Assembly: GCA_964536205.1 (NCBI GenBank)
Contig: CAZHVT010000007.1
Coordinates: forward strand, 1,054 to 44,012
From: an uncultured Gammaproteobacteria bacterium
GTDB taxonomy: Bacteria > Patescibacteriota > Patescibacteriia > Magasanikbacterales > GCA-002688135
Length of the DNA: 42,959 bases
Direction: 5' to 3'
Shown here in pieces: positions 3,444-20,853 of this stretch; position 1 is the first letter of the stretch, and each line of letters begins with the position of its first letter. A program made the position numbers and the translations under genes. The notes beneath the pieces are model-generated. The model was given only the letters and a program-made list of their open reading frames with translations, searched no databases and was not told the origin of the DNA.

Positions 3444-6347
3444 ATGCAATGGATCAGATCGAAATTTTGTAACATAACGCGGCGTCAGATCGCGTTTCTT
3501 GCGATTGGAGCGGCGTTGCTTTTTGTATTTTTTCTGCCGTCTTTTGTTCATGCTGGGATGAGTATCACAAATATTTTGCAGATGATTTTGGGGAACTTGA
3601 TTCAGTGGCTCATGAACATCATTTCGCAGATTATGTTGTGGGCGATGAATGGTGTGGTTGCTGTAGCGATGTATAACGATTATGCGCATGCAACAGCGGT
3701 ATCGATTGGATGGATTTTGATTCGAGATATCACCAACATGTTTTTGGTAGCGTTGATGTTGATGATGGCTTTTGGAACGCTTTTGAATCGTGGAGATTTG
3801 TTGGGTGATTATAAGAGTTTGCCAAAGTTTGTGATCATCGCGATTGTGATCAATTTTTCAAAGATGATTACGTTGTTGATTATCGATATTGGTCAGGTTG
3901 TGATGCTCTCGTTTGTTGCAGCGTTTCAAAATAGTGCGGGTGGAAATTTCTTGAAAGCTTTTGGAATGACGAAGTGGCTGCAGGCTTCAACAGGGGGATC
4001 GGCTGCCAATTATGGAACTAATTTGGTATTAGCTTTGTTGATGGCTCTTGTGTTATCTGCGATTGTGTTGGTGGTGATGTTGGTTTTCTTGGCGTATCTG
4101 ATTGCTCGTATTGCGATGCTATGGATTTTGTTGATTTTTTCACCGCTCGCATTTGCATTGAAGTTGATGCCAACTCGAGGACAGAAATTTTATGGACAAT
4201 GGTGGGAATATTTAATTTCAACAATTATTGCAGGGCCGCTTCTGGCATTCTTTTTATGGCTGACGCTGATCACGGCTGGAGTTTCTAATGGTTCTTTGGG
4301 TACAGAGGTTATGGCGGATGCTGCGGCTGTTCGAGCGGCACAGCAGGGTGAGTTGGCTGCTGGGCAGAATGTTGGCAAACAATCTGGAATTACGATTTTG
4401 AATGAAGACACACTCACGACATTCATGATTTCTGTAATCATGTTGTTGTTGGGATTGAAGATCACTTCGGAGATGGGTGGTGTTGTTGGTGGTGCGATTG
4501 CGGGGAAGGGGTTGGGTGCGGTTAAGGGTGGCGCAAAGCTGTTAGTTAAAAAGGGGTACCAAAAAACAAAAGAGAAAGCGGCGAATACCAGAATACCGTT
4601 TACTGGTGGGCAAACGTATGCTGGGCGTGCGAAAGCAAAAAAAGCTATTAAGGAAGAGCGTCTGTCTTCCAATCAGAAATATGCCGAGTTGCAATCTCGT
4701 AAAGCTTTGGGAGATACCAGAGGTGCTGCAAAACTTGAAGCATCGTTAGTGAATGATGAACGTGAGAATGTGAAGGGTCTCAATCAGGCTGATAAGATTC
4801 AGGCTTTGAATAATGCTCCTGAAGGTTCTCTTGAGCAGCAAGCTATTAAGTTGGAGTTGGCTTCAGGCGGATATTATAATGATAAATTACATGAAGTTGA
4901 TGATGCTATTGGAGGGAATAAAGAATTTGGAATTAAATTTAAAGCTGAAATTAAAAAGTCTGGTGGTCAGGTGCTTGATATTAAACCGGGTCAGACTGCT
5001 GCGGAAGTAATTAGTGAAAAATTTGCAAATGGTGATAAAGATATTATTAAGAATTTGCCCTCAAGAGTTAAGTTGGCTCGTTCGAGTTCTGGTGAGGTGA
5101 AGATGGCTGATCCTCATGCAATGGATGTGTTGGAGGCTATTCCTCCGGATCAATTTGCGAAATATTCAGCTTCTCAAAAGCAGTCTGTCAATGATTCGTT
5201 TATGCTTGCCATGAAGAATAATTCAGATATGGCTAATCCGGATCAGGTTGCACAGCTGGCAAAATTGAAAGCTAAATTTGAGTCATTGAATGGCTTGGCT
5301 GGTGCAACGTATGATAATGCGGGTGGTGGAGGTGGTGTTGGTGATTATAGGTTGGTTTCAGCCCGTGTTACGGAGAAAAAGAATGCAAAGGGAGATATTG
5401 TGCGAAAAGAACAGACTGTTGCTGAATATGCTGACACAGCTTCTAAGCTTCGTGCTCGTCAAGGTTCATCAGTTGCTAAACAATCATCTGGCCTGTCTGC
5501 TGCCTCATTGACAGAACAACGAAAAGTAGATGGAGCGATTCCAGCGCAAGATGTCGCGGTTTCTCGTGGTGTTGCCTCAATGAGTAGTAGTGAGCGTAGT
5601 TTGTTTGATGCTTCAGCTTCTGTTATCACGAGTGATGCAGATGCAGATATTGCAGCTGGAAATTTTGCTGATGCTTCAACGAAGATGAGCACTGAACTTA
5701 CTAATATTGAGGATAGGTTTCGAGGGCTTGATGGAACCGGGCATTCTACAAAGGCCACAAATAAAGATGGTTCAACCATGACTAATGAAGAGGCTGTTGG
5801 AGGCAGTACGTTATCTGCTGCAATTAAGTCGCTGAAGGAGGCTGTTGATGCACGCGCTGCATTACCAGCCACAGCTACGGCTGCTGAAGAAGAAACTGCT
5901 ATGAAGCGAATTGCTGCTTTGCAGAAGGAATTGAAAGAAGTTGTTTTCAATGCACAAAGAAGACAAGGTGCGGTATCAGGTGCTTCAAGTAGATTGGGTC
6001 GAAAAATGCGAACAGGAGCGCGTAAGAAGTTATCTGTCAGTGCGCCTGCGGTTAAGAGTGCTGCAACAAGGGCTAATTCAGCAGCAACTGAATCTGATCA
6101 AGCTGCAGCTATTCGAGATTATCGTGCGGCTTTGGCCAAAGCAATGGATCATTTGCATGGTGCGAGTAAGGAAAGCAAGGTTCCTGTGGCAAGGCTCGGA
6201 GAAGTTGCTCAATTGAAGCGTGATTTGGCCATCATGGCTGGTAAGCTTCAGGCTAATCGTGTTGCTGGGCGAGATAATGCTGCAGACCTTGCTGAACTTA
6301 AACGTATTAAGGATGAGTTTGATCGTTTGAATGATGAATTAGGTTAG
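3444..6347 (+). CDS. VirB6/TrbL-like polytopic T4SS membrane protein with a long Ala-rich helical C-terminal extension
   Basis: About 8 hydrophobic segments in aa 1-350; GWILIRDITN, IVINFSKMI, RIAMLWILLIFSPLAF motifs; upstream of prgI and virB4. Confidence 0.75.
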   Translation: MQWIRSKFCNITRRQIAFLAIGAALLFVFFLPSFVHAGMSITNILQMILGNLIQWLMNIISQIMLWAMNGVVAVAMYNDYAHATAVSIGWILIRDITNMFLVALMLMMAFGTLLNRGDLLGDYKSLPKFVIIAIVINFSKMITLLIIDIGQVVMLSFVAAFQNSAGGNFLKAFGMTKWLQASTGGSAANYGTNLVLALLMALVLSAIVLVVMLVFLAYLIARIAMLWILLIFSPLAFALKLMPTRGQKFYGQWWEYLISTIIAGPLLAFFLWLTLITAGVSNGSLGTEVMADAAAVRAAQQGELAAGQNVGKQSGITILNEDTLTTFMISVIMLLLGLKITSEMGGVVGGAIAGKGLGAVKGGAKLLVKKGYQKTKEKAANTRIPFTGGQTYAGRAKAKKAIKEERLSSNQKYAELQSRKALGDTRGAAKLEASLVNDERENVKGLNQADKIQALNNAPEGSLEQQAIKLELASGGYYNDKLHEVDDAIGGNKEFGIKFKAEIKKSGGQVLDIKPGQTAAEVISEKFANGDKDIIKNLPSRVKLARSSSGEVKMADPHAMDVLEAIPPDQFAKYSASQKQSVNDSFMLAMKNNSDMANPDQVAQLAKLKAKFESLNGLAGATYDNAGGGGGVGDYRLVSARVTEKKNAKGDIVRKEQTVAEYADTASKLRARQGSSVAKQSSGLSAASLTEQRKVDGAIPAQDVAVSRGVASMSSSERSLFDASASVITSDADADIAAGNFADASTKMSTELTNIEDRFRGLDGTGHSTKATNKDGSTMTNEEAVGGSTLSAAIKSLKEAVDARAALPATATAAEEETAMKRIAALQKELKEVVFNAQRRQGAVSGASSRLGRKMRTGARKKLSVSAPAVKSAATRANSAATESDQAAAIRDYRAALAKAMDHLHGASKESKVPVARLGEVAQLKRDLAIMAGKLQANRVAGRDNAADLAELKRIKDEFDRLNDELG

Positions 6348-6357
6348 TTTGTATAGT

Positions 6358-8112
6358 ATGGATTTTGGGAATGAACAACAGATGAAGGATTTTGAAACCT
6401 TTATCGCGAATCATTCTTTGGAGGCGCATAAGGCCTCTCTCTATTCACTTGCGCAAGAATTGTTTGATGGAACTGTTTCTATTGATAATATTTCAGATCG
6501 ATTGTTTGATATATTTGGTGAGGATTCCGTTACGGATGAGAAGCGTTTGAATATCGAAGAGGATTTTTATGTTGGTTTGATATTTCCGTATGAGAAAGAT
6601 ATTAATGTTGCATTTGAGAATAACAAATTAAGTATACATGAGATTGTTGAGGCCATTAAAAAGGTGGTGGAAGTTTCTTTTGATGATAAGCGGATGAATC
6701 GTCGTTTTGATCATATTGTTGGACTTTTTTTTAAGGGTCAATATGATGTGCTGCGTACATCACGTTCGATGTCAAAGAGTACGAAGGCTGGTGGGATGGG
6801 ATTGGACACAGAAACTGGTCAGAAGATTATGCAGGAGTTGGTGAAGTATGAGAATCGTGTAAGTCTTGAGAAAACGAAGAAGGAGGATGTTGCGGAAGCT
6901 GCTGCAGTTGAAAAGAGGGAAGATGATGTTGCGAAATGGTTGGAGGAACACAAAGAGAATGAAGTTGTTGAAGAAAAACCTGTTGTAAAAAGTAAGAGTC
7001 AATTGAAGGGTGCGGATGCGCGGGGGGCTGCGAAGTTGAAGGCTGCGTTATCTCCTGAAAAAATCTCAAAACCTGCTGCTCCGAAAGTGCCAAAGAAAAA
7101 AGTTGTTAAGAAGGTTGCAAAGGAAAAAGTTGTGGTTGGAAAACAGCCGCAGATTGTGAAGAAAAAACGTCAGGTTGGTGATGTTGCGATTGCGGCGAAT
7201 TCGGAGACTGTGAAAACTGTTTCTGTTGGTGCAGGGGATATGTTGACAGATGAGGAGGTTGGACAGGTAAAGCATGCTGCAGCAGTAGTGAAATCAAAAC
7301 CTGTTCAACATGATACGCAGAAGGAATTGATGGAAAAGGTGAAGGAAACAATCGCGAAATCTGGGATTTCATATAAAGAACCAAAAATAGAGAAACAATT
7401 TCAGAGTATTGTGATGTCTCGTTTGAAGGATACGCGTGGGCCATATGAAACACGAGATGCGGTGATGAAGCCGGTGGAGCAAGGAGGTTTGGGTATGAAG
7501 GTTGATGAGGCGCAGAAATTTTTGCATTTGTTGGAAGCAGCGAATGATGAATTAACGGGTGCGTGGGAAGATAGGGAGCGTGAGAAGAAGATGGCGTATT
7601 TGCAAGATCGTCGAGCAAAATTATTTCATAGTAAACCTGCGGTGGTGGAGAAGGTGGCGCATAAAGGTACGTCGGCGGATGTGCGGACTGTGGTGAAGAA
7701 AAAGCCTGCGAAAAAACGTCAGCCGCATGTTGCGGATGGATTGAAATCTTCTAAGCCTGCGATGCATGACGTGAAAGCTCCGCCGAAATTGATAAATCCT
7801 GTTTCTGAATTGAAATCATATACGTTGGAGGATTTTCATCGATTGCATGCAGATCCGGTTGAAGCTGCGCTGAAAGTTGAGGGGAAGATTCGATTGTTAG
7901 GTCATGAGTCGTTTGTGATGATGAAAAAAGGAGCTGCAGCGTGGAAGCATTCTGAAGTGATGAAGATTTATAAGGAGCAATTGCAGCAGAGTATTGTGGG
8001 GAATATGCCATTAACAGATGTGATTGCAAAGCGAAAGGAGTCAGGGATGTTGGTGTTGGAGGTTGCGGAGGTTGAGGCGTTAACTGATTTGTCATCGAGA
8101 TTAAGAGGATAA
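6358..8112 (+). CDS. Hypothetical protein in the T4SS cluster, with a Lys/Val/Pro-rich linker and two GGxG-containing helical repeats
   Basis: Long ORF with genome-typical codon usage; internal similarity between KSTKAGGMGLDTETGQK and KPVEQGGLGMKVDEAQK. Confidence 0.8.
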   Translation: MDFGNEQQMKDFETFIANHSLEAHKASLYSLAQELFDGTVSIDNISDRLFDIFGEDSVTDEKRLNIEEDFYVGLIFPYEKDINVAFENNKLSIHEIVEAIKKVVEVSFDDKRMNRRFDHIVGLFFKGQYDVLRTSRSMSKSTKAGGMGLDTETGQKIMQELVKYENRVSLEKTKKEDVAEAAAVEKREDDVAKWLEEHKENEVVEEKPVVKSKSQLKGADARGAAKLKAALSPEKISKPAAPKVPKKKVVKKVAKEKVVVGKQPQIVKKKRQVGDVAIAANSETVKTVSVGAGDMLTDEEVGQVKHAAAVVKSKPVQHDTQKELMEKVKETIAKSGISYKEPKIEKQFQSIVMSRLKDTRGPYETRDAVMKPVEQGGLGMKVDEAQKFLHLLEAANDELTGAWEDREREKKMAYLQDRRAKLFHSKPAVVEKVAHKGTSADVRTVVKKKPAKKRQPHVADGLKSSKPAMHDVKAPPKLINPVSELKSYTLEDFHRLHADPVEAALKVEGKIRLLGHESFVMMKKGAAAWKHSEVMKIYKEQLQQSIVGNMPLTDVIAKRKESGMLVLEVAEVEALTDLSSRLRG

Positions 8113-8145
8113 AATATCTTTTATCTGTTATAATGTAAAAGAATC

Positions 8146-8256
8146 ATGAATAATGAATTATGAAGCATGGGTATGTGTCGTGGAGCGACATTTATATTAT
8201 TGAGCTTAGCTCAATTTCCGCCTACGTCATTATTCATATTTCATAATTCATTATTC
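8146..8256. repeat. Palindromic AT-rich heptamer-repeat element
   Basis: GAATAATGAATTATGAA ... TTCATAATTCATTATTC inverted arms built from 7-mers; preceded by TGTTATAAT at 8126-8134. Confidence 0.7.
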
Positions 8257-8262
8257 TCATGT

Positions 8263-8733
8263 ATGCCGCAGCAATATGTCGTGCCACAATTTTTAACTGT
8301 TGAGCCCAAAATTATTGGGCCTATTACGATGCGACAGTTTGTGATTTTGTTGGGTACGGCTTTGTTGATTGCGATTAATTTTAAGTTGTTAACATTGTGG
8401 TATTCGATTCCATTGTCATTGTTTGAGTTTGGTTTGGCTGCCTTATTTGCATTTTATAAAGTGAATGGATTGCCATTTCAGTATTTTGTATTGAATTACT
8501 TGCAGAATTTGAAACGTCCGAATGTGCGTGTGTGGAGTAAGGAATATACGAAAAAGGAGTTGAAAGTTTTTATGAGTATGAAGGCGCCGGAATTACCGGA
8601 AGCGGCGTTGGCGCGTGTGAGGCCTACTGAATCTCGTTTGGCGAAGCTGTCTTTGATTGTGAATACTGGGGGAGCGTTTTCTCCGGACGATCAGAAAGTA
8701 CTTGAACCAATGAAATTTGAGAAGAAAAAATAA
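8263..8733 (+). CDS. prgI: PrgI-family (VirB3-like) T4SS membrane protein
   Basis: QYVVPQF..EPKIIGPITMRQF N-terminal motif and two TM helices. Confidence 0.85.
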   Translation: MPQQYVVPQFLTVEPKIIGPITMRQFVILLGTALLIAINFKLLTLWYSIPLSLFEFGLAALFAFYKVNGLPFQYFVLNYLQNLKRPNVRVWSKEYTKKELKVFMSMKAPELPEAALARVRPTESRLAKLSLIVNTGGAFSPDDQKVLEPMKFEKKK

Positions 8734-8734
8734 T

Positions 8735-9445
8735 ATGCCCATCGACGAACAACACGAAGCTCGCAAAGAGGTCAGAACAAAATCGGTGAAACAGCGTGCT
8801 GCTGCAACCAAACGTTTTTTGGATATTTCTGAAATTCGTGATGGAGTTGTGGTTATGAAAGACGGAACGCTTCGTCGTGTTTTGATGGTTTCAAGTATCA
8901 ATTTTTTCTTAAAAGGAGTTGATGAGCAGGATGCGATTATTGCTGCATATGTGCAATTTTTGAATGCGTTGGAATCGCCTGTGCAGTTTGTGATTCAATC
9001 TCGAAAGTTGAATGTTGATCCATATTTGCAGATGTTAGTTGAGAAAGAAAAGGAGCATACAACTGATTTGATGAAAAGTCAGACTGCAGAGTATCGAGAT
9101 TTTATCACGCAGTTGATTGATTTACAGGATATTATGGAGCGTCGATATTTTGTGGTTGTTCCATATAATCCTCTCACAAATAAACAAAAAGGATTTTTTA
9201 AACGTTTTTCAGAATTGTGGGCTCCAGGTGCGACGATTAAATTGAAGGAAAAAGAATTTCAGAAACGAAAGTATGATTTGGATTTGTTAACTCAGCGTAT
9301 TTCTTCGGGGTTGTATCAGATGGGATTGGAGATTACGCAATTAGATACACAGTCTTTAATTGAACTTTATTATGATACGTATAATCCGGATGTGGCTGCT
9401 ACGGAACACCTTGAAGACATAAACAAAATACAAATCGACGGATAA
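8735..9445 (+). CDS. T4SS protein resembling the VirB4/TraC N-terminal region
   Basis: EIRDGVVVMKDG, VSSINF, EQDAII..Y..FLNAL, RRYFVVVPY, LIELYY; located between prgI and virB4. Confidence 0.75.
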   Translation: MPIDEQHEARKEVRTKSVKQRAAATKRFLDISEIRDGVVVMKDGTLRRVLMVSSINFFLKGVDEQDAIIAAYVQFLNALESPVQFVIQSRKLNVDPYLQMLVEKEKEHTTDLMKSQTAEYRDFITQLIDLQDIMERRYFVVVPYNPLTNKQKGFFKRFSELWAPGATIKLKEKEFQKRKYDLDLLTQRISSGLYQMGLEITQLDTQSLIELYYDTYNPDVAATEHLEDINKIQIDG

Positions 9446-9448
9446 CAT

Positions 9449-11290
9449 ATGGCATTTAATCTTAACGCACCAAAAGCAAAAGTGAAGCAAAAGGTTTCTG
9501 CGGAAGCTAAGGAGGCGAAGTATAATCTTTCGGCTTTGCAGGAGGAGCGCGTGTATCGACGCGGTGTGGTGAGTATTCATGATGTGATTGCGCCGCAAGC
9601 GATGAAAATAGAATCATCGTATTTGCGATTGGGTGATACGTTTGTGCGTACCATGTTTGTGATGACGTATCCACGATATTTGGCTGTTGGGTGGTTTGGG
9701 CCGATTATGAACATCAACAAAACAGTTGATGTGAGTATGTTTTTTTATCCCATTCCAGCTCCGATTATTTTGAAACAGTTACAGAAAAAGGTTGGTGAGG
9801 TGCAGGCGCAGTTGATGGCAGATGCACAAAGTGGTGCGCCGCGGGATCCTTTGCGTGAGGCTGCTTTGCAAGATATTGAAAAATTGCGAGATGATCTTAC
9901 GCAGGGGATTGAGCATTTTTTTCAGTTTGCATTGTATGTGAGTTATTATGCGAAGAGTTTGAAGGAGTTGGATCAGTTGACTGATGAGTTGGAGGGAATG
10001 TTTAGTAGTAAGTTGGTGTATACGAAAAAGGTGTTTTATCAGGCAGAGGCCGGGTTTAATTCGACTGTGCCGCTTGGATTGGATGAGTTGATGATTACAT
10101 TTAATTTGTCGAGTTCACCATGTGCAACTTCATTTCCTTTCATGAGTGCGGATTTAACATCGAGTTCTGGAGTTTTGTATGGTATCAATAATCATAATAG
10201 AAGTTTAATTATTTTTGATCGATTTAGTTTGCAAAATGGGCACATGGTTGTGTTTGCGACTTCTGGTGCTGGGAAATCATTTGCGATTAAGTTAGAGATT
10301 TTACGTTTGTTGATGTTGGGATCTGAAGTAATTGTGATTGATCCTGAAATGGAATATAAAGCGGTTTCAGATGCGGTTGGTGGAACGTACATTAATATTT
10401 CGTTGTCGAGTAAAAATAAAGTTAATCCGTTTGATTTACCGCGGCCAATGGAAGGGCAGACTGAAGGTGAGGATTTGATTCGATCAGCGGTTACGATTGT
10501 GAAAGGTTTGCTGCGATTGGTTTTGGTTGAGGTTACTCCGGCTGAAGATTCATTGCTTGATCGGGCGTTGTTGGAAACATACGCAAAGAAAGATATCACG
10601 CCTGACTCTGATTTTTCTAAGGTTGAGTCTCCGATCATGGCGGATTTCTTGGATATTTTGGAGGGGATGGAGGGTACGAAAAATATTATTATTAAGTTGA
10701 AGAAATATACTGAAGGGACGTTTTCTGGTTTGTTTAACTCGCCAACAACTGTGCAGACAAATAATAATTTAGTTGTTTTTAGTGTTCGGGATTTGGAAGA
10801 TGAGTTGCGTCCGATGGCTGTGTATTTGTTGATGGCGTACATTTGGAATGTTGTGCGAAGTGAGAAGAAGCAGCGCATTTTGGTTGTTGATGAGGCGTGG
10901 TGGATTATGCAGTTTGAGGATAGTGCGAAGTTTTTGTTTGCGCTTGTGAAACGTGGTCGTAAGTATTTCTTGGGTGTGACGACGATTACGCAGGATGTGA
11001 ATGATTTTTTGCGCAGTCCGTATGGACAGGCGATTGTGAATAACTCGGCTTTGCAGTTGTTGTTGAAACAATCTCCAGCTGCGATTGATGTAATTCAAAA
11101 GACATTCTTGTTAACGGATTCTGAAAAACATTTGTTATTGGAAGCAAAGCCAGGATATGGTATCTTTTTTGCAGGATCAAAACATGCTTCGATTTACGTA
11201 GCGGCGTCATTTCAGGAAACACAATTGGTGACGACTGATCCGAAGGCATTATTGAAGCAAAGAGCTGCAAAAGAAGAGAAAGAGGCATAG
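9449..11290 (+). CDS. virB4: VirB4-like T4SS ATPase
   Basis: Walker A ATSGAGKS, VIDPEMEY, VNPFD, Walker B ILVVDEAW, RGRKY, ITQDVNDF. Confidence 0.92.
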   Translation: MAFNLNAPKAKVKQKVSAEAKEAKYNLSALQEERVYRRGVVSIHDVIAPQAMKIESSYLRLGDTFVRTMFVMTYPRYLAVGWFGPIMNINKTVDVSMFFYPIPAPIILKQLQKKVGEVQAQLMADAQSGAPRDPLREAALQDIEKLRDDLTQGIEHFFQFALYVSYYAKSLKELDQLTDELEGMFSSKLVYTKKVFYQAEAGFNSTVPLGLDELMITFNLSSSPCATSFPFMSADLTSSSGVLYGINNHNRSLIIFDRFSLQNGHMVVFATSGAGKSFAIKLEILRLLMLGSEVIVIDPEMEYKAVSDAVGGTYINISLSSKNKVNPFDLPRPMEGQTEGEDLIRSAVTIVKGLLRLVLVEVTPAEDSLLDRALLETYAKKDITPDSDFSKVESPIMADFLDILEGMEGTKNIIIKLKKYTEGTFSGLFNSPTTVQTNNNLVVFSVRDLEDELRPMAVYLLMAYIWNVVRSEKKQRILVVDEAWWIMQFEDSAKFLFALVKRGRKYFLGVTTITQDVNDFLRSPYGQAIVNNSALQLLLKQSPAAIDVIQKTFLLTDSEKHLLLEAKPGYGIFFAGSKHASIYVAASFQETQLVTTDPKALLKQRAAKEEKEA

Positions 11291-13012: not shown

Positions 13013-13084
13013 TGCCCCCACCAAGAATCGAACTTAGATCAATGGCTCCGCAAGCCACCGTTTTATCCATTAAACTACAGGGGC
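13013..13084 (-). tRNA. tRNA-Arg (anticodon GCG), CCA not encoded
   Basis: GCCCCTG-TA-GTTT..AAAC-GTGGC TT GCG GA GCCAT-..CTAAG TTCGATT CTTGG-TGGGGGC-A cloverleaf. Confidence 0.93.
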
Positions 13085-13105: not shown

Positions 13106-13334
13106 CACCAAGAATCGAACGAGGAACCCAATTGCGAATATCTTACTTACATCTGCAGCGCCTGTTTTGGTTAAAATAATTTTATAGCTTCTCAACGATA
13201 CGATTGTATCGCTTCGTCGCCAGTAAAATGATTTTATCTCAAAACATGCACTACATCTGCAAGCAACATATTAGCAACTGGATTCCAGATCAATGGCTCC
13301 GCAAGCCGCCGTTTTATCCATTAAACTACAGGGG
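13106..13334 (-). pseudogene. Interrupted second copy of tRNA-Arg(GCG)
   Basis: 13287-13334 matches the tRNA 5' part (1 mismatch) and 13106-13120 matches the T-loop part; 166 nt separate them; the 3' acceptor strand is missing. Confidence 0.85.
13123..13286 (-). repeat. 164-nt rod-like hairpin inserted in the T-stem of the tRNA copy
   Basis: Minus-strand GGAATCCAGTTGC pairs with GCAATTGGGTTCC; further stems lead to a GATAC-AATC-GTATC apex. Confidence 0.85.
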
Positions 13335-13881: not shown

Positions 13882-14133
13882 TTATTTTTTTGAAAATCGA
13901 ATAATTTGTTTTAATGACGATTTCCCTTTTTGCGTTTTGAAGTATCTTTTTCTGCGTTCGGCATCTCGTCTGTTCTTGAAAGCCTCATAGAAAATTAATT
14001 CTAACGGTCTACGATGCTTGGTTGATATCACTTCTCCACGCTCGTGTTGTGCGTATCTAACTTTTAAGTTGTTTGTGTAGCCGATGTATAGTTTTTCATC
14101 GTACTTGCTTTGTAGGATGTATGTGTAATACAT
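13882..14133 (-). CDS. Short stand-alone GIY-YIG nuclease family protein
   Basis: YYTYILQS..LYIGYTNNLKVR..QH..G..STK.RRP.ELIFYE. Confidence 0.9.
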   Translation of the reverse strand: MYYTYILQSKYDEKLYIGYTNNLKVRYAQHERGEVISTKHRRPLELIFYEAFKNRRDAERRKRYFKTQKGKSSLKQIIRFSKK

Positions 14134-14142
14134 AAGATGACG

Positions 14143-14196
14143 GCCATGAACCACAAGGGTTCACGGCTCGCCATGCACCCTACGTGGTGCATGGCG
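14143..14196. repeat. Two tandem REP-like palindromes between tRNA-Ser and the GIY-YIG gene
   Basis: GCCATGAACC-ACAAG-GGTTCACGGC and CGCCATGCACC-CTACGT-GGTGCATGGCG. Confidence 0.75.
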
Positions 14197-14279
14197 GAGA
14201 GGACTGGATTCGAACCAGCGAGACCCCGGAGGGTCACAGATTAGCAATCTGTTGCCTTCAGCCGCTCGGCCACCTCTCC
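14192..14279 (-). tRNA. tRNA-Ser (anticodon GCT), long variable arm, CCA encoded
   Basis: GGAGAGG..ACAGA TT GCT AA TCTGT..GCTGG TTCGAAT CCAGT CCTCTCC GCCA. Confidence 0.95.
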
Positions 14280-14285
14280 ATGCAT

Positions 14286-14410
14286 TAAAATTCGTGAAAT
14301 GGGCGGACTGCACTGATCTTCACAAAATCCTTACTCGATGTACCTCTCAGTACACCTTGCTTCGGATTTTGCTCCAGATCAGTACATTCCATCCCATTTG
14401 ACGAATTTTA
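14286..14410 (-). repeat. 125-nt rod-like hairpin in the tRNA-Ser leader
   Basis: TAAAATTCGT..AAATGGG..ACTGATCT..CAAAATCC..TGTAC with mirrored arms. Confidence 0.85.
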
Positions 14411-14483
14411 TCTCGTTGTAATATGTGCGTGGTATCATCTCATCCCATTTGGCGCGATCTCCAAGTGCGTTGAATCTGTCTAA

Positions 14484-14512
14484 AGTATACGAAAATGCAG
14501 GTTTTGAGTCAA
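14484..14512 (-). promoter_or_regulatory. Sigma70-like promoter of the tRNA-Ser transcript
   Basis: TTGACT-17 bp-TATACT on the minus strand. Confidence 0.7.
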
Positions 14513-14530
14513 TGTGATACAGTAAGATCT

Positions 14531-16609
14531 ATGTCATGTGATGAATCGGTTACAATATTGTCTGGTTTGGCGAAGAAGCTGGGTGGGAAATTTAAGAAGC
14601 TGTCTGTTGAGACGGTGGGTGATTTGTTGCATTATTATCCTGTTGATTATCAGGATCGTCGGGCGGTTACTCCGATTGATAAGGTTCAGGCTGGGGATGT
14701 GGTGACGATTAAGGCGCGGATTGAATTGTTGCAAGCGAAGCGGAGTTTTCGTCGGAAGACGACAGTAACCGAAGCATTAGTGAATGATAATTCTGGGACG
14801 ATGCGGATTGTGTGGTTTGGTAATCGATTTATTCAAAAAGCTCTGAAACCTGGTGATCAGGTTTATTTTTCTGGGAAGGTTCATGAGGATCAGTTTGGTT
14901 TGCAGCTGCGCTCGCCCGAGCATGAAAAAGTGAAGGAACAATCCTTGCATGCAAATAGTATTGTGGCGCGTTATGCATTAACGAAAGGCTTGACGCATAA
15001 GCAGATGCGTTTTTTTGTTTCTAAGGCGCAGGCGAAATGTCAGATTGTTGAGTGGCTGCCGGAATTGTTGCGAAGTCGTGCTGGTTTGATGCGAATTGAT
15101 GAGGCGTTGCGAGCGATTCACGCGCCGAAAAGTTGGAAGCATTTGCGGATGGCGCAGAAGCGCTTGAAGTTTGATGAATTGTTTTTGTTGCAGTTGAGAA
15201 GTTTGTTGACGCGGGAGGAATTGTTGGCGTTTTCTTCTCCGTCGTTTGATGTTGATGAGAAATTGTTGCAGCATTTTGTTGGAGGATTGCCGTATCAATT
15301 AACAGATGATCAGAAGAAATCTGCATGGGCGATGTTATTGGATTTGAAAAAGGGACATCCGATGAATCGATTGTTGCAGGGGGATGTTGGTTCTGGGAAA
15401 ACCGTTGTTGCGGCAATGTTGATGTATCATGTTGCGTTGCAAAATTCCGTGAGTATTTTGATGGCGCCGACAGAGATTTTGGCGCGACAGCATTTTGAAA
15501 CGTTGAGTGAGTTATTTAAAGATATGACGGTGGGGATTGGATTGTATACGAGAAGTTTTCGTCGCATACATGGATCTGAAGATGCATTAACAAAAAAACA
15601 GTTTGGGAATTTGCTTGAGCATGGAGGATTGAAGATTTTGATTGGAACACATGCGTTATTGCATGATCCTTTGAAGATTGATGATTTGGGATTGGTGATT
15701 GTTGATGAGCAGCATCGGTTTGGAGTGAAGCAAAGACGAGCGATTAAAGATCGAATGAAGGGTGATATGATGCCACATTTTTTATCTATGACTGCGACGC
15801 CGATTCCGCGATCTGCGAGTTTGGTATTGTATGGTGAGTTGGATGTTTCGGTGATTCGGGAAAAACCAAAAGGAAGAAAGCCGATTCAAACAAAGATTGT
15901 GAGCAATGATGATCGAGAAAAGACATACAAGTTTATCAAAAATCATTTGGATCGTGATCGACAATGTTTTGTGGTGTGTCCGATGATTGACCCTGAACCA
16001 CATGGGTATCAGGGCGAGGGAGATGTAGCGAGTGTGCAGAGTGTTTTTGATAGGTTATCTTCTGGGCCATTTGCAAATTACAAAGTTGAGATGCTGACAG
16101 GAAAAATGAAATCGAAAGAGAAGGAGGAGATTATGGGAAGGATGGCGGTGGGGGAAATTGATGTGTTGGTGGCGACGAGTGTGATTGAGGTTGGTGTTGA
16201 TGTGCCGGGTGCGACAGTGATGATGATTGAGGGTGCAGAACGATTTGGACTGGCGCAGCTTCATCAATTTCGTGGGAGGATTGGAAGGTCTTCACATCAA
16301 TCTTTTTGCTTTTTATTTACGACAAAAGAATCGGATGAATCGAATTACCGGTTGAGAATTTTTGAAAAACATGATGACGGATTTATTTTGGCACAACATG
16401 ATTTGAAAATGCGTGGACCAGGAGATATGTATGGAACGGTGCAATCTGGATTTCCGGATTTGAAATTAGCCAGTTTGAAAGATGTAGAATTAATTGAACT
16501 CGCGCAAAACTCTGCAAAAAAATTATTTGAATCTGATCCCAACAAAATGCGCTATCCAGAAATTTGGGCAAAGCTGGATGTGCTTCGACAAAAAGTTCAT
16601 ATGGAATAA
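14531..16609 (+). CDS. recG: ATP-dependent DNA helicase RecG
   Basis: OB wedge domain, QGDVGSGKT, DEQHRFGV, MTATPIPR, RFGLAQLHQFRGRIGR, DLKMRGPG. Confidence 0.97.
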   Translation: MSCDESVTILSGLAKKLGGKFKKLSVETVGDLLHYYPVDYQDRRAVTPIDKVQAGDVVTIKARIELLQAKRSFRRKTTVTEALVNDNSGTMRIVWFGNRFIQKALKPGDQVYFSGKVHEDQFGLQLRSPEHEKVKEQSLHANSIVARYALTKGLTHKQMRFFVSKAQAKCQIVEWLPELLRSRAGLMRIDEALRAIHAPKSWKHLRMAQKRLKFDELFLLQLRSLLTREELLAFSSPSFDVDEKLLQHFVGGLPYQLTDDQKKSAWAMLLDLKKGHPMNRLLQGDVGSGKTVVAAMLMYHVALQNSVSILMAPTEILARQHFETLSELFKDMTVGIGLYTRSFRRIHGSEDALTKKQFGNLLEHGGLKILIGTHALLHDPLKIDDLGLVIVDEQHRFGVKQRRAIKDRMKGDMMPHFLSMTATPIPRSASLVLYGELDVSVIREKPKGRKPIQTKIVSNDDREKTYKFIKNHLDRDRQCFVVCPMIDPEPHGYQGEGDVASVQSVFDRLSSGPFANYKVEMLTGKMKSKEKEEIMGRMAVGEIDVLVATSVIEVGVDVPGATVMMIEGAERFGLAQLHQFRGRIGRSSHQSFCFLFTTKESDESNYRLRIFEKHDDGFILAQHDLKMRGPGDMYGTVQSGFPDLKLASLKDVELIELAQNSAKKLFESDPNKMRYPEIWAKLDVLRQKVHME

Positions 16610-16634
16610 AAAACACCCAAAGGGTGTTAGGGTG

Positions 16635-16955
16635 CTAGGGGGTTTCTTTGTTTCGGCGCCTGATGCTGATGAAAGCATGGATCATCGGTTCAAAGAATAC
16701 GCGCAGGAGATGATTGATGCCACACATGAGTGTGACTATCATGAGGCTCATGGTGAGCATTTCGGGATGTGCTTGTTCGGCGGGATTTGCTCGTATCACG
16801 AATATTGTCGCGAAGATGTAGAAGAAAAGTGCTAGCCAACCGTAGAATTGTGGTCGCCATGCATCTTCCAGCTTTTTTTCTGTGATGATGGTGACGAATC
16901 TGACGCAGATTACTGTTGCAATCCACGCGATGAACATGAAGGTGTGTTGTTCCAT
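16635..16955 (-). CDS. Small 3-TM membrane protein (106 aa), unknown function
   Basis: GAGGT SD; three hydrophobic segments; own promoter upstream. Confidence 0.65.
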   Translation of the reverse strand: MEQHTFMFIAWIATVICVRFVTIITEKKLEDAWRPQFYGWLALFFYIFATIFVIRANPAEQAHPEMLTMSLMIVTLMCGINHLLRVFFEPMIHAFISIRRRNKETP

Positions 16956-16984
16956 GAAGTACCTCGCCTGAATGATCTGAAGGG

Positions 16985-17013
16985 ATACTAATTGTTTTAG
17001 GGCTGTTTGTCAA
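16985..17013 (-). promoter_or_regulatory. Sigma70-like promoter for 16635-16955
   Basis: TTGACA-17 bp-TAGTAT. Confidence 0.65.
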
Positions 17014-17045
17014 CCTTTCTGGGTTAATTTTTTGATAAGGGGTTC
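17010..17045 (-). pseudogene. Diverged remnant of the radA 3' end
   Basis: Encodes EPLIKKLTQKG* versus the radA end ESLVQKLTQKS* (17486-17521); 25/36 nt identical. Confidence 0.65.
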
Positions 17046-17056
17046 GTTCGACCACT

Positions 17057-17302
17057 TTACTCGCTATACAGAAATTTGGGGAAAGTTGGATGTGCTTCGA
17101 CAAAAAGTTCATATGGAGTAAAAAAAGAGCTGATGCGTGACAGGCAAAAGCTCGTGCTCATGTGACTCCAGCTTATCCTTGATGGGTATTCGCCCTGAAT
17201 ATCTTTTTCGTGGCTCAGCACCACGATGTACCTTGGGCACACTTGCAACATGTGCACTGTACTCTGATATTCATTCAGGCATGCGGTGCTGCACCATCGC
17301 AT
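17057..17302 (-). CDS. Possible small or degraded ORF behind a structured leader
   Basis: AAGGAG immediately upstream and a consensus-like promoter, but no recognisable protein features. Confidence 0.25.
   Translation of the reverse strand: MRWCSTACLNEYQSTVHMLQVCPRYIVVLSHEKDIQGEYPSRISWSHMSTSFCLSRISSFFTPYELFVEAHPTFPKFLYSE
17062..17121 (+). pseudogene. Duplicated recG 3' end
   Basis: 56/60 nt identical to 16550-16609, including the TAA stop. Confidence 0.9.
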
Positions 17303-17460
17303 GCGTCTCCTTAGTCTCTTTGACGGGCACTGTGCTGTTTAATTCACAGTCATTACTGGAGGAGTTGGTGATGTCTTGTTCAGTTTACTCCGCAAGTGTG
17401 GTATTTCTATCCCATCCACACTCGGAGCGCCGTAGCGCTAAATTCACATAGAGCTGTCAT

Positions 17461-17489
17461 ATCATAACCTGCGTTTGGCATTTTGTCAA
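17461..17489 (-). promoter_or_regulatory. Sigma70-like promoter overlapping the radA stop codon
   Basis: TTGACA-17 bp-TATGAT. Confidence 0.7.
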
Positions 17490-18844
17490 GATTTTTGGGT
17501 GAGTTTTTGTACTAGTGATTCGATGTTGTCGAGTTCGACAATTGAGAGATTTGTTTTGATTTTTGAATGTTTTTTGGGGACTATTGCGTAAGTGAATCCT
17601 AATCTGGCGGCTTCTTTGATGCGTTTTTCAAAGTGGGGGATTGAGCGGATTTCACCGCCGAGACCGATTTCACCAAAGGTGATTATTTTTTTTGAAACTG
17701 GTTTATCTTTGAGTGCGGAGACGATTGCGGTTGCAACTGCGACATCTGCGGCGCGTTCTTTTATTTTCATGCCGCCAGAAACGTTCACAAACACATCGTA
17801 GCTATCGAGCGGAAGTTTCATTCGTTTTGATAAAATTGCGATGATGATTTGTAAGCGATTCAAATCAAATCCTGAAGCTCTGCGTTGTGGAAATCCGAAT
17901 TGTGTATTTGTGACAAGTGCTTGGACTTCTACCAGGATTGGTCGTGTACCTTCGATAATGCTTGTGACAACTGATCCTGAAGAAGCTTCTGGTCGCTCTT
18001 CCAATAATAATTCTGATGGATTGGTGACTTGTTGCATACCTTCTTCACTCATGCTGAACATGCCAATTTCATCTACGGGGCCGAATCGGTTTTTTAAGGC
18101 TCGCAAGATCCGTGTTTCCCCAGAACGCTCTCCTTCAATTAAAAATAATGCATCGATCAGATGTTCGAGAGTTTTTGGTCCTGCAACTCCTCCTTCTTTG
18201 TTTACATGACCAATTAAAAATACGGGAATGTTATTTTTTTTCGCTGATGTTGTGATGATTGCTGCGGCTGCACGAACTTGTGAAATGCTTCCTGGTGCTG
18301 CATCAGAAACAGGGGATTGGATTGTTTGGATTGAATCGATGATTGCGCAGGCTGGTTTCTCCTTTTCGATTGTAGCGGCGATGTTTTCAGCGAGTGTTTC
18401 TTCCGAATACAAAATGTGTTCGTTTGTAATGCCGAGTCTGTTGGATCGTCTTGCTACTTGTGAGCCCGATTCTTCGCCGGAAATATATAACACCGACGAT
18501 TGTTTTGTGGCTAGTTTGTTGGCAACTTGCAAAATAAGAGTTGATTTTCCAATTCCTGGTTCTCCCGCTAATAACATGATTGATCCTGGTACAATTCCGC
18601 CGCCTAATACGCGATCCATTTCTTCGATATTTGTTTTAATTCGAGAAACTTTTTGTGTGTCTATGTTTGTGAGTGATTGTGTTTTCGCGGGGGAGCCGGT
18701 TACTTTTTTTTGTGTACCTAAGATAGCTGGAGTCTCCTCAATCATCGTTCCCCATTTTGAGCACTCAAAGCATTGTCCACTCCACTTCTGGGACTGAGCA
18801 TCACAGTTCGTGCATGTAAATATTGTTTTAACCTTGGTACTCAT
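17486..18844 (-). CDS. radA: DNA repair protein RadA/Sms
   Basis: C4 zinc finger, GEPGIGKSTL, IDSIQT, KNRFG, Lon-like C-terminal domain; start at ATG 18844. Confidence 0.97.
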   Translation of the reverse strand: MSTKVKTIFTCTNCDAQSQKWSGQCFECSKWGTMIEETPAILGTQKKVTGSPAKTQSLTNIDTQKVSRIKTNIEEMDRVLGGGIVPGSIMLLAGEPGIGKSTLILQVANKLATKQSSVLYISGEESGSQVARRSNRLGITNEHILYSEETLAENIAATIEKEKPACAIIDSIQTIQSPVSDAAPGSISQVRAAAAIITTSAKKNNIPVFLIGHVNKEGGVAGPKTLEHLIDALFLIEGERSGETRILRALKNRFGPVDEIGMFSMSEEGMQQVTNPSELLLEERPEASSGSVVTSIIEGTRPILVEVQALVTNTQFGFPQRRASGFDLNRLQIIIAILSKRMKLPLDSYDVFVNVSGGMKIKERAADVAVATAIVSALKDKPVSKKIITFGEIGLGGEIRSIPHFEKRIKEAARLGFTYAIVPKKHSKIKTNLSIVELDNIESLVQKLTQKS

Positions 18845-18869
18845 GATGCTTTGCTGCAAACAAGTTTTC

Positions 18870-18941
18870 CTGCCCAGCCCATCGTTGGGACTGAGCATCA
18901 CAGTTCGTGCATGTAAATATTGTTTTAACTTTCGTATTCAT
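18870..18941 (-). pseudogene. Duplicated radA 5' end (24 codons)
   Basis: MNTKVKTIFTCTNCDAQSQRWAGQ versus MSTKVKTIFTCTNCDAQSQKWSGQ; 61/72 nt identical with a 44-nt perfect core. Confidence 0.9.
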
Positions 18942-18942
18942 G

Positions 18943-20853
18943 TTATGGAACTTTTTTACACGATGCGCTAAATTTTTGACTGAAGTTGCTTGTTAATCTC
19001 GGATTTTGAGTTCTTGCGTGAAGTTTGTTGTTAAATGTTGCTCCTGCGGATTTTCCCATTTTTTCGAAGTCCCAGTGCTGTGCGTCAGTTCTGCTGTCTT
19101 GGCATTCCCCATGCCCACGTACTGTCTCGTCATTGATAGGGATGCCATAGGTAGTTCCTAGGTATTTTACCAATCTGCCCACCGCCTTATATTGAGCATC
19201 AGTCCATGTAACGTCATAATTGATGAGTTTTTTTACTTTCTTGCCCGTTTTTTTATTAGTGCGTGTTACCCATTTACCTCCTTCTTTTTTGAAAATGAGA
19301 TCGATCCCGATTGATTGGGAGTTGAATTTTTTTGCGTGATAAGTTTCGAGCAAAACGTCCGCAGTTTGGTATACTGTACCGTCTCGCCCTACGGTAAAGT
19401 GACTTGATGCAGGGAATCCAGATCCGTATCTTGCAGATCTCCAATCTACGATTTGTTTATATACCGGATAGTATACTTCTTTACCGAAACTTTTTGACCA
19501 ATTTTTTTGTGAATTTGCATGTGTTGCTGTACTTCTTCCGTTGTGCAAAATTATCAATACAATATTTTTCTTTTTGCGAAAATTTTTACTATTGTTGCAA
19601 TCCAAACTTCCGTAATAATCATAATTCATTTTGACGCCTGGTGGCTTGTCTTTTACCTTTGATGGATTTTTCACCTTACAATACGATGTATCTTTGAGGT
19701 TTTGTAACACTGCTTTTGGCGGCCTGTCATTTTGAACTTTATTTCGAGGTCCTGAATTCATTTTCGCACCACCAACAACACTTGGTTTGTTGCTTCCTGA
19801 ACTTTCGGCCGTTCCTCCAACAACACCTGCTGATGAACCACGAGAATTAAATTCAGCTTGCATTTCTGCTTCTTCTCTGTCGACTACTATAATATCTAGG
19901 ACTTGTAGCGACAAGATTTCTGGATTGATGATTGTTAATATGAAATACGAACCCAATAACAGTGCGAGCCCGAATGTTGCTCGATTTATTTTTTCTTTTG
20001 CTTGTTCAACTCGGCCAGATCCGCCTGCAGTCATCCATTGAATTCCTCCAATCATCATGATGATAATGGCGATGATGATTCCGACCCCTATGAGATAATT
20101 ATATGCAGCTGTTGCGTATTCTGCCAACCATGGGATATCAACACCTTTGTCATCTTCGTCTGCGGTTACTTTTGAAAATTGCAATCCCGGAATAGGTATG
20201 TGTAGTTTTGGTGTGGCGATGGGTGCTGGGGGAATCTTATCTAGTGGTTTGCCGGATGTTCCTGCTGCTTTTGGTGCCCACGCGCATTTTATTTTGTCTT
20301 TTACGGTGGGATTTTCTTTTTTGAAATTTGCTTGTAACCCTGCGCATTGTGTTGGGCTGTGGTTTGGTGTTGGTGTAATTTCTTTGCCTGGCACAGTGCA
20401 CGCACAGTCACCTTGTTTTTGTGTAAATTCTTTATTTGTTGTGCTGGTGCATTTGCCTGTTTGTCCTACTGCTAAATAACATGCTTTGGTGTCTGTATCT
20501 TCTTTTGATTTGCATGTTGTATAATCTACATTTTCAAAACACGCTCCTTGTTTTGGTGGTTGTTCGCCAATGATACAGTGACAGTTTCCGTTGCTTGTTG
20601 GGGGATTGGCAACCCATGTACATTTTTTTTCAAAGAATTTACTTGAAGGTTTTTGTAGATTTTGACAGTCATTGTTTGTTAATTCTTTGACTGGATCTTT
20701 AACTGCTTTTCCGCCTTTTGTCCCTGTTGTGGTACATGAGCATTTTCCGAGTTCGATTGCCTGTGTTTTTTGTAGTGGAATGAATACAAATATACACATC
20801 AATGCAATTGCTGCGACCATGAATTGATTTTTGTACACCGTATGTTTATACAT
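18943..20853 (-). CDS. Secreted Cys-rich protein with a T4SS-pilin (VirB2-like) domain and a C-terminal Amidase_2/AmpD-like N-acetylmuramoyl-L-alanine amidase
   Basis: Signal peptide; IMMIGGIQWMTAGG..AKEKI..A..GL.LLLGSYFIL..INP; IILH, SSHFTVGRDGTVYQ, YHA..NSQSIGI, QY..L, RGH. Confidence 0.8.
   Translation of the reverse strand: MYKHTVYKNQFMVAAIALMCIFVFIPLQKTQAIELGKCSCTTTGTKGGKAVKDPVKELTNNDCQNLQKPSSKFFEKKCTWVANPPTSNGNCHCIIGEQPPKQGACFENVDYTTCKSKEDTDTKACYLAVGQTGKCTSTTNKEFTQKQGDCACTVPGKEITPTPNHSPTQCAGLQANFKKENPTVKDKIKCAWAPKAAGTSGKPLDKIPPAPIATPKLHIPIPGLQFSKVTADEDDKGVDIPWLAEYATAAYNYLIGVGIIIAIIIMMIGGIQWMTAGGSGRVEQAKEKINRATFGLALLLGSYFILTIINPEILSLQVLDIIVVDREEAEMQAEFNSRGSSAGVVGGTAESSGSNKPSVVGGAKMNSGPRNKVQNDRPPKAVLQNLKDTSYCKVKNPSKVKDKPPGVKMNYDYYGSLDCNNSKNFRKKKNIVLIILHNGRSTATHANSQKNWSKSFGKEVYYPVYKQIVDWRSARYGSGFPASSHFTVGRDGTVYQTADVLLETYHAKKFNSQSIGIDLIFKKEGGKWVTRTNKKTGKKVKKLINYDVTWTDAQYKAVGRLVKYLGTTYGIPINDETVRGHGECQDSRTDAQHWDFEKMGKSAGATFNNKLHARTQNPRLTSNFSQKFSASCKKVP

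Follow-up and report, generated by a model that had tools for sequence, protein, structure and literature searches.

Bacteria of the candidate phyla radiation (CPR), or Patescibacteria, have tiny genomes with few classical mobile elements, which makes it a question by what routes their strain-specific genes are acquired. The question is raised at the level of single bases by the gap between the convergent genes recG and radA in a 42,959-nucleotide (nt) stretch of one such genome (GCA_964536205.1, contig CAZHVT010000007.1), referred to here as the window. Two unrelated cargos lie in this gap one behind the other, each with a tail of recG and a tail of radA, and it was asked how the second unit came to stand beside the first. 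The second unit was probably stacked beside the resident one by homology-facilitated illegitimate recombination (HFIR) or by insertion-duplication, without a dedicated recombinase. The locus is a real and well-resolved recombination scar; it reveals no new mechanism, and on this reading it would record cleanly, base by base, how a gene was gained through homologous recombination on one side only. The source genome (G000) is 1.12 Mb in 20 contigs and 99.4% complete, and the window is contig C7:1054-44012. Two further genomes used throughout, G001 and G002, are of the same genus.

Organization of the recG-radA gap

The genes recG and radA converge on a gap of 876 nt. From recG to radA come cargo A, a radA tail that has diverged, the joint of 16 nt, another recG tail, and cargo B. 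The features are as follows, in coordinates of the window.

14495..16609, plus strand, recG, intact, 704 amino acids (aa), with the Pfam domains RecG_wedge, DEAD, Helicase_C, and RecG_dom3_C
16550..16613, plus strand, recG tail copy 1, the functional end of the gene with the stop at 16607-16609, direct repeat family D2
16612..16628, minus strand, terminator-like hairpin of cargo A, with a 7-pair stem, a 3-nt loop, and a T-tail
16635..16955, minus strand, cargo A open reading frame (ORF), 106 aa, with three hydrophobic segments, orphan
16985..17013, minus strand, promoter-like site A, TTGACA-17-TAGTAT, 10/12 match, with the TGA of the radA fragment in the -35 box
17010..17045, minus strand, diverged radA tail fragment, 11 codons and the stop
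17046..17061, no strand, joint, 16 nt with no clear parent, as read from the sequence
17062..17125, plus strand, recG tail copy 2, displaced, with no gene attached, direct repeat family D2
17122..17460, minus strand, cargo B, without a credible ORF, candidate structured RNA of ~330 nt
17461..17489, minus strand, promoter-like site B, TTGACA-17-TATGAT, 11/12 match, with the real radA stop in the -35 box
17486..18844, minus strand, radA, intact, 452 aa from the ATG at 18844, with the Pfam domains ATPase/KaiC, ChlI, Lon_C, and zinc ribbon

The final 60 nt of recG, together with 4 nt more, are repeated at 17062-17125 with 60/64 positions identical (56/60 over the span given in an earlier note, which had been made from the sequence of this DNA alone). 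The mismatches are at 16556, 16569, 16574, and 16606, leaving an exact 31-mer (16575-16605 = 17087-17117), and when the entire 1.12-Mb genome was searched against itself the repeat had an E value of 1.5e-19. Copy 1 has retained the base of G001 and G002 at two of the four positions that differ, and copy 2 has two non-synonymous changes that are derived when set against copy 1, G001, and G002. The identity of copy 2 is 94% to copy 1 and 80% to G001. The radA fragment reads EPLIKKLTQKG* against ESLVQKLTQKS* at the real end of the gene (7/11 residues and the stop) and was the best non-self match among 2,238,350 six-frame genome positions, with the runners-up at 6/11, twice. For the DNA, 37/50 aligned columns agree between 17046->16994 and 17522->17473, so that the likeness extends through the TTGACA box, and the local score of 41 was reached by 0/1000 shuffles (20.3 +/- 3.5). 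Divergence is unequal, at 6% (4/64 nt) between the recG tails and 31% (11/36 nt) between the radA tails, which also differ by an indel. From these comparisons, recG tail copy 2 looks like the lineage's own sequence, and the radA fragment would appear to be older or foreign. The fragment at 17010-17045, the 16-nt joint, and the sequence from 17062 onward form a join of mutually non-homologous sequences; the first 7 nt of the joint recur 12 nt deeper in the real radA (17534-17540).

In both units the radA TGA lies in a TTGACA box on the minus strand with a 17-nt spacer to the -10 box. The region has three promoter-like sites, which is in itself no unusual count (1.8 +/- 1.3 in shuffles). Genome-wide, the TGA stops of long ORFs lie inside TTGACA in 6/190 cases, compared with 1.07% of all TGA trinucleotides; the stop-codon promoter is therefore a recurrent compact layout in this genome and not peculiar to the recG-radA locus. 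The recG stop and A-run are complementary to the T-run of the cargo A hairpin, and cargo B ends in a weak hairpin and T7 beside recG tail copy 2. The sequence supports a gap anatomy in which two putative promoter-cargo-terminator units each have one tail of recG and one of radA. Both parent genes are continuous with those of G001 by sliding identity, recG at 80-92% nt identity over its full length with no break at the 3' end and radA at 74-97% along the entire gene.

The elements listed in the earlier note are all present at the coordinates given there. Its tail similarities are above chance against the shuffled controls, the self-search, and the six-frame scan, the placement of the radA TGA within TTGACA was confirmed for both units, and its statement that the window has no integrase or transposase gene agrees with a Pfam scan of 36 window ORFs, among which neither family was found.

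Cargo A and cargo B

In the cargo A ORF the hydropathy exceeds 1.5 in windows around residues 3-27, 35-59, and 66-89, and the ORF is accompanied by a plausible ribosome-binding site in addition to its promoter-like site and terminator-like hairpin. Its codon score of -0.12 is low for the genome (recG, +0.30; radA, +0.21), and its GC content is 47% compared with 42% for the genome. Among 5.8 billion proteins and among 1.84 billion representatives the ORF matched nothing but itself, its Atlas scores all stayed below 0.9, and it had no match in viral contigs, genome contigs, phages, or plasmids. Assignment to MpPF26 was rejected, the Pfam match being sub-threshold only.

Cargo B folds on the minus strand, the sense that would be transcribed from promoter-like site B, with z = -4.89 and 0/100 shuffles as stable, compared with z = -2.94 for its plus strand and -1.77 for the cargo A mRNA. 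Because it has no credible ORF and its fold beats shuffles, cargo B is read as a possible structured RNA or hairpin-rich non-coding unit, known as a single sequence. Several perfect hairpins lie at 17110-17455 on the minus strand behind the 11/12 promoter match. An 81-aa ORF in cargo B has a codon score of -0.30, runs antisense across copy 2 of the recG tail and beyond the terminator-like hairpin, and had no match in the protein search. A search of 16500-17600 against Rfam gave nothing above noise (the whole window gave two tRNAs only), and cargo B has no second copy in any collection searched.

Comparison of cargo A (16610-17009) with cargo B (17122-17485) gave no blastn match below E 0.2 and no tblastx match below E 1. 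The cargos are thus unrelated and the units are not homologous over their full length, and a plain tandem duplication was therefore rejected. Neither cargo was found elsewhere in the source genome, in 200 genomes of the order, in species-representative genomes, or in viral contigs, phages, and plasmids, and neither cargo's ORF has a relative in the protein libraries.

Support for the joint in public sequencing runs

The joint was checked in per-run Logan contigs (k = 31) from four public runs (X1, X2, X3, and X5). These were assembled separately; X1 and X2 share their longest record and may be one data set, and any run may be the source sample. The joint at 17046-17061, for which the earlier note had considered a chimeric assembly, is bridged with zero differences in the contigs of 4/4 runs: X1 record 2 and X2 record 6 (16576-17117), X3 record 12 (16750-17116), and X5 record 19 (16872-17164), the last of which passes through recG tail copy 2 into cargo B. 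The depths of unit A and unit B are 6.2 and 6.1 in X1 and 5.5 and 5.9 in X2.

An assembly artefact would require that two strain alleles of the gap were wrongly joined by the assembler. In its favour, the population is heterogeneous at the locus (X1 and X2 skip 97 nt near the start of radA, and X3 and X5 have 37 letters more at 18853), 16480-16575 lacks a contig in X1 and X2, and the two units connect via an exact 31-mer, as long as the Logan contig k. However, a collapsed bubble cannot yield the radA-tail/joint/recG-tail sequence. The 31-mer is entered only from recG and from the joint, and unit A must therefore be entered from recG. With the joint bridged in every run, equal depths in X1 and X2, and only these two entries into the 31-mer, a chimera is very improbable. 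The contig holes at 16480-16575 (X1, X2) and 16394-16863 (X5) are no proof either way; the hole in X1 and X2 may reflect strain single-nucleotide polymorphisms at the edge of a recombination tract. The 6-kb contig of X1 and X2 stops at 16479, 96 nt before the 31-mer, and 16480-16575 is covered in X3.

The recG-radA slot in relatives

The 2-kb region was searched against 40 relatives, of which 33 matched (34/41 counting the source genome). The recG and radA stops are ~3 nt apart in G001 and ~3-4 nt apart in a metagenome contig that is 85% identical (L023). G002 has a 505-nt gap with one different ORF of ~120 aa, which has several hydrophobic stretches and no homologue in the protein search; a TTGACA box lies 26 nt past its radA stop, and a hairpin with a T-run lies on its recG stop. 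One genus shows the empty site, an alternative filling, and the stacked state, in which the cargo is orphan (a membrane-type ORF and a candidate folded RNA).

The two genes are convergent in 10/10 relatives in which both were matched on one contig. From tblastn ends, the gap is at most ~30 nt in 5/10 (G001, G007, G022, G031, and G036) and 0.5-3.1 kb in the other 5/10 (G002, G026, G023, G030, and G032), and the slot is therefore a recurrent insertion point. No tail relics were found by blastn in the gaps of G023, G026, G030, and G032, which contain ordinary genes, and a metagenome scan with RadA returned two loci only, one of them identical to the G002 contig. Judged from these gaps, the slot is old and has been used repeatedly, and the stacked state is limited to the source species.

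Origin of the second unit

In the preferred scheme, the slot would gain self-contained units, each made of a -35 box over the radA stop, a cargo, and a terminator T-run over the recG stop. In the source species, a second unit would have been added beside the first, and the event would have left one illegitimate junction, in which the last ~36-50 nt of a radA gene are joined to the terminal 60 nt of a recG gene through a filler of at most 16 nt. Such a join of a radA end to a recG end is what a second copy of the slot, set next to the first, would produce. The incoming DNA, taken up or transferred, would have stemmed from a lineage whose own slot held another unit, and would have paired homologously on one side (recG or radA) and been joined without homology on the other, which is HFIR. 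Equivalently, a short circularized fragment could have entered by a single crossover in the recG tail, as in insertion-duplication. Either way recG and radA would remain intact, each cargo would retain its own promoter and terminator, and the displaced tails would be relics. Because the cargos are unrelated, recombination with a lineage carrying another unit would be the simplest history. We infer who the donor was, which way the event ran, that DNA was taken up, and that the units are expressed; a possible route for uptake is given by an intact ComEC-type gene, above the cut-off in the family search, and genes of a type IV secretion system (T4SS). The recG tails, with 60/64 identical positions and the exact 31-mer, could be the anchor homology or a duplicated recipient segment.

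HFIR, or homologous recombination at the border, is known from transformable bacteria, and displacement arrays have been explained by it. The primary papers are said to be those of de Vries and Wackernagel in 2002, Prudhomme et al. in 2002, and Meier and Wackernagel in 2003. Passages of one study propose it for stacked modules of type VI secretion systems (T6SS) and orphaned 3' regions at rhs loci (PMC5361080), parts of another assign much small-scale genome diversity to homology-assisted illegitimate recombination (PMC2884548), and an HFIR-type case appears within an account of Escherichia coli conjugation (PMC3240628). The recG-radA locus resembles HFIR in having one putatively homologous side and one non-homologous joint, presumably foreign DNA beside conserved genes, and no dedicated recombinase. 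It differs in that the recipient segment is duplicated and not deleted, the joint lies between two convergent gene ends, and the event is known here from sequence alone. Insertion-duplication of the Campbell type, from a circular molecule, is matched by the 64-nt recG-tail direct repeats that flank the inserted 448 nt, but it would need a 512-nt circle of the donor gap and both gene tails, for which 64 nt of homology is short; we know of no 512-nt circle of that kind.

Several results weigh against this scheme. No Logan contig bridges the link from recG to unit A over the exact 31-mer, and this link rests on the original assembly and graph logic. No donor was found for either cargo in the order or in the representative, viral, phage, plasmid, and protein collections. 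A degenerate pattern for a radA ending like the fragment (last 8 codons and stop) gave two Bacillales matches in the representative genomes, neither of them radA. Unit A alone or unit B alone was found in no contig of the four runs, none of the 200 genomes or species representatives, and no metagenome locus searched, and relatives with single-unit alleles, which the earlier note had anticipated, were accordingly not found in these sets. One uniformly diverged donor does not fit the 4/64 differences in the recG tails and 11/36 in the radA tails. Gene conversion between the recG tails could plausibly explain the inequality, because in G002 the two copies of a radA head duplication shared with the source genome are 97.8% alike. 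In sliding identity against G001 and G002, neither recG nor radA has a 3' segment of higher divergence that would mark an import, and since there is no break in divergence against G001, an imported tract cannot be delimited. Experimental HFIR more often deletes than duplicates recipient DNA, and duplication needs two chromosome copies or a circular intermediate. Natural competence is reported as demonstrated for Saccharibacteria only (PMC10633639) and not for Parcubacteria.

The claim of the earlier note that an entire allele of a related strain was added beside the resident one stands as far as the two-unit anatomy, the real joint, the empty and alternative states of the sister genomes, and the lack of a recombinase nearby are concerned. 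It gained no support from a single-unit strain or a radA ending like the fragment, neither of which was found in the sets searched, and the unequal divergence of the tails (6% vs 31%) is not explained by one uniform donor. The further claim of a new recombinase-free, cassette-like route to gene gain was not upheld, as the locus matches HFIR or insertion-duplication and displacement arrays as known from parts of two studies (PMC5361080, PMC2884548). The double-tail joint and the stop codon in a -35 box are neat and not new in kind.

Other copied gene ends in the genome

Four gene-end relics lie within 6 kb of each other: a tRNA-Arg head, the recG tail, the radA tail, and a radA head. The last is as follows.

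18871..18942, minus strand, radA head copy, the first 24 radA codons, repeat D1, 86% over 72 nt (parent 18774-18845)

The radA head copy lies 97 nt upstream of radA and abuts the stop of the upstream amidase/T4SS-pilin gene; it forms a 37-aa ORF with a stop that overlaps the radA start. G002 has a radA head copy with the same breakpoint and a homologous spacer, from which it follows that the duplication predates the split of the two species, and the 97.8% likeness of the two G002 copies is possibly the result of concerted evolution. The radA head varies among runs. Contigs of X1 and X2 omit the 97 nt between the head copies (18789-18885) and have a single head, the 37 extra letters of X3 and X5 are similar to the G002 spacer, and the 97-nt form that the window itself has did not occur as such in any of the four runs. 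G001 contig C29 ends at 8184 (L003 3446) within the first radA codons, a break that is expected if G001 has the radA head repeat. For tRNA-Arg(gcg) (13013-13084, minus strand), the 5' 48 nt (13036-13083) are copied 251 nt upstream at 13287-13334 with 47/48 identity, and ARAGORN found no second tRNA at the copy.

Short diverged copies of gene ends, to which the earlier note had pointed as something to be looked for across the genome, are present at further loci. A uvrA tail with TTGACA (contig C2:69077-69654; L032 2078-2655) is copied 525 nt downstream around a 133-aa ORF. It ends, like the radA tails, in a TGA inside TTGACA, and behind the second uvrA tail there is a further promoter-like site followed by a 52-59-aa basic ORF with a terminator. 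The uvrA tail copy is in G000 only, and G001-G004 have one tail each. As a second case in the same genome, the uvrA locus speaks for the preferred scheme. A protein-level scan of gene ends (ORFs of at least 150 aa) found at least 11/16 identities nearby for 5/1558 ends and 0/1531 controls, with settings that missed the radA tail and radA head. The clear relics among the five matches are the recG tail, the uvrA tail on C2, and one gene head on C5. At C5:52250-52401 the head of a 334-aa ORF (first 13/16 residues) is copied ~110 nt upstream, like the radA head. Self-blast of the genome returned 81 pairs of local repeats with less than 5 kb between them, and of the 32 inspected most were intergenic repeat elements or paralogue tails and not relics of gene ends.

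Alternative explanations

The stacked state could also have arisen in place in two steps, by tandem duplication of the slot through unequal or illegitimate sister-chromosome exchange, after which one cargo was replaced or decayed and the repeats were converted. The joint is exactly the novel junction that a tandem duplication would make, recG tail copy 2 is nearer to copy 1 (94%) than to G001 (80%) as for a duplication within the lineage, and short gene-end duplications do persist in a homogenized form in the genus, as the radA head copy of G000 and G002 with one breakpoint illustrates. Yet cargo A and cargo B have no residual similarity, the radA tails are 31% apart with an indel, and replacement of a cargo would call for crossing over within arms only 36-64 nt long, or else for another illegitimate event, which is more steps than a single event. 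This history is unlikely, though a fair rival. The units could also be mobile cassettes that a trans-acting enzyme sets at gene ends, with the gene tails as target or attachment sites; the single Xer-like recombinase and a GIY-YIG nuclease like that encoded at 13882-14154 would be candidates. The 64-nt direct repeats around a 448-nt insert resemble att sites, the uvrA locus has the same grammar with a repeat ending at GGTTGACA, the 6/190 long-ORF stops in TTGACA exceed the 1.07% background, and the GIY-YIG gene is 340 nt upstream of recG. Against this, the recG-radA and uvrA repeats share only the -35 hexamer, no flanking inverted repeats or attC-like arms are present, the window has no integrase or transposase by the Pfam scan, and the cargos occur nowhere else in the genome or the collections searched and hence show no sign of movement. 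Such cassettes are decidedly improbable.

Other candidates were rejected. An island integrated by a recombinase at a gene 3' end does not agree with the lack of an integrase family in the 36 window ORFs, the sole tyrosine recombinase gene (PF00589) of the whole genome being on contig C1. For an integron cassette array, no inverted repeat flanks either unit (12 pairs in 14000-20000) and there is no integrase; an attC covariance model was not run. A diversity-generating retroelement was rejected because the mismatches are C/A, C/G, C/T, and A/G and are not confined to adenine, and no reverse transcriptase family was found in the window ORFs scanned.

Comparison with known stacked units

For rhs loci, C-terminal displacement was reportedly described by Jackson et al. 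in 2009. In Vibrio cholerae, T6SS effector-immunity modules are displaced one after another (PMC5361080). In such arrays, as at recG-radA, a module enters at a conserved gene end and pushes the old end and module downstream, leaving stacked modules and orphaned 3' pieces. Here, by contrast, the cargo is an orphan membrane-type ORF and a non-coding, putatively structured stretch and not toxin-immunity pairs, the orphaned pieces are 11-20 codons long, and both flanking genes give a tail. Integron gene cassettes are small units stacked at one site, and phage morons are independent promoter-gene-terminator units. The recG-radA units are likewise small and stand-alone and are stacked at one site, with a moron-like putative promoter and terminator in each, but no attC, IntI, or phage context is present, and a promoter for each unit is unlike integron cassettes.

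A more far-reaching proposal is that the locus is a recombinase-free cassette slot, in which the -35 box and the terminator T-run are written into the stops and the gene tails serve as portable homology arms. Competent CPR populations would in that case exchange, stack, and discard orphan units, whether small genes or RNAs, through RecA, illegitimate joining, and gene conversion, and the four relics within 6 kb would mark a recombination hot spot. We regard this proposal as doubtful; if true, it would amount to an integron-like supply of novel genes without an integrase.

Neighbouring genes

Genes of a T4SS lie at 3444-11290 in the window and include a PrgI family gene and a TraG/VirB4-like ATPase gene. 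Directly upstream of radA, 18943-20853 encodes a 636-aa protein in which a T4SS-pilin-like segment is fused with an Amidase_2 domain. The GIY-YIG nuclease gene (13882-14154, minus strand) is a stand-alone gene of 90 aa and lies beside a tRNA-Ser gene.

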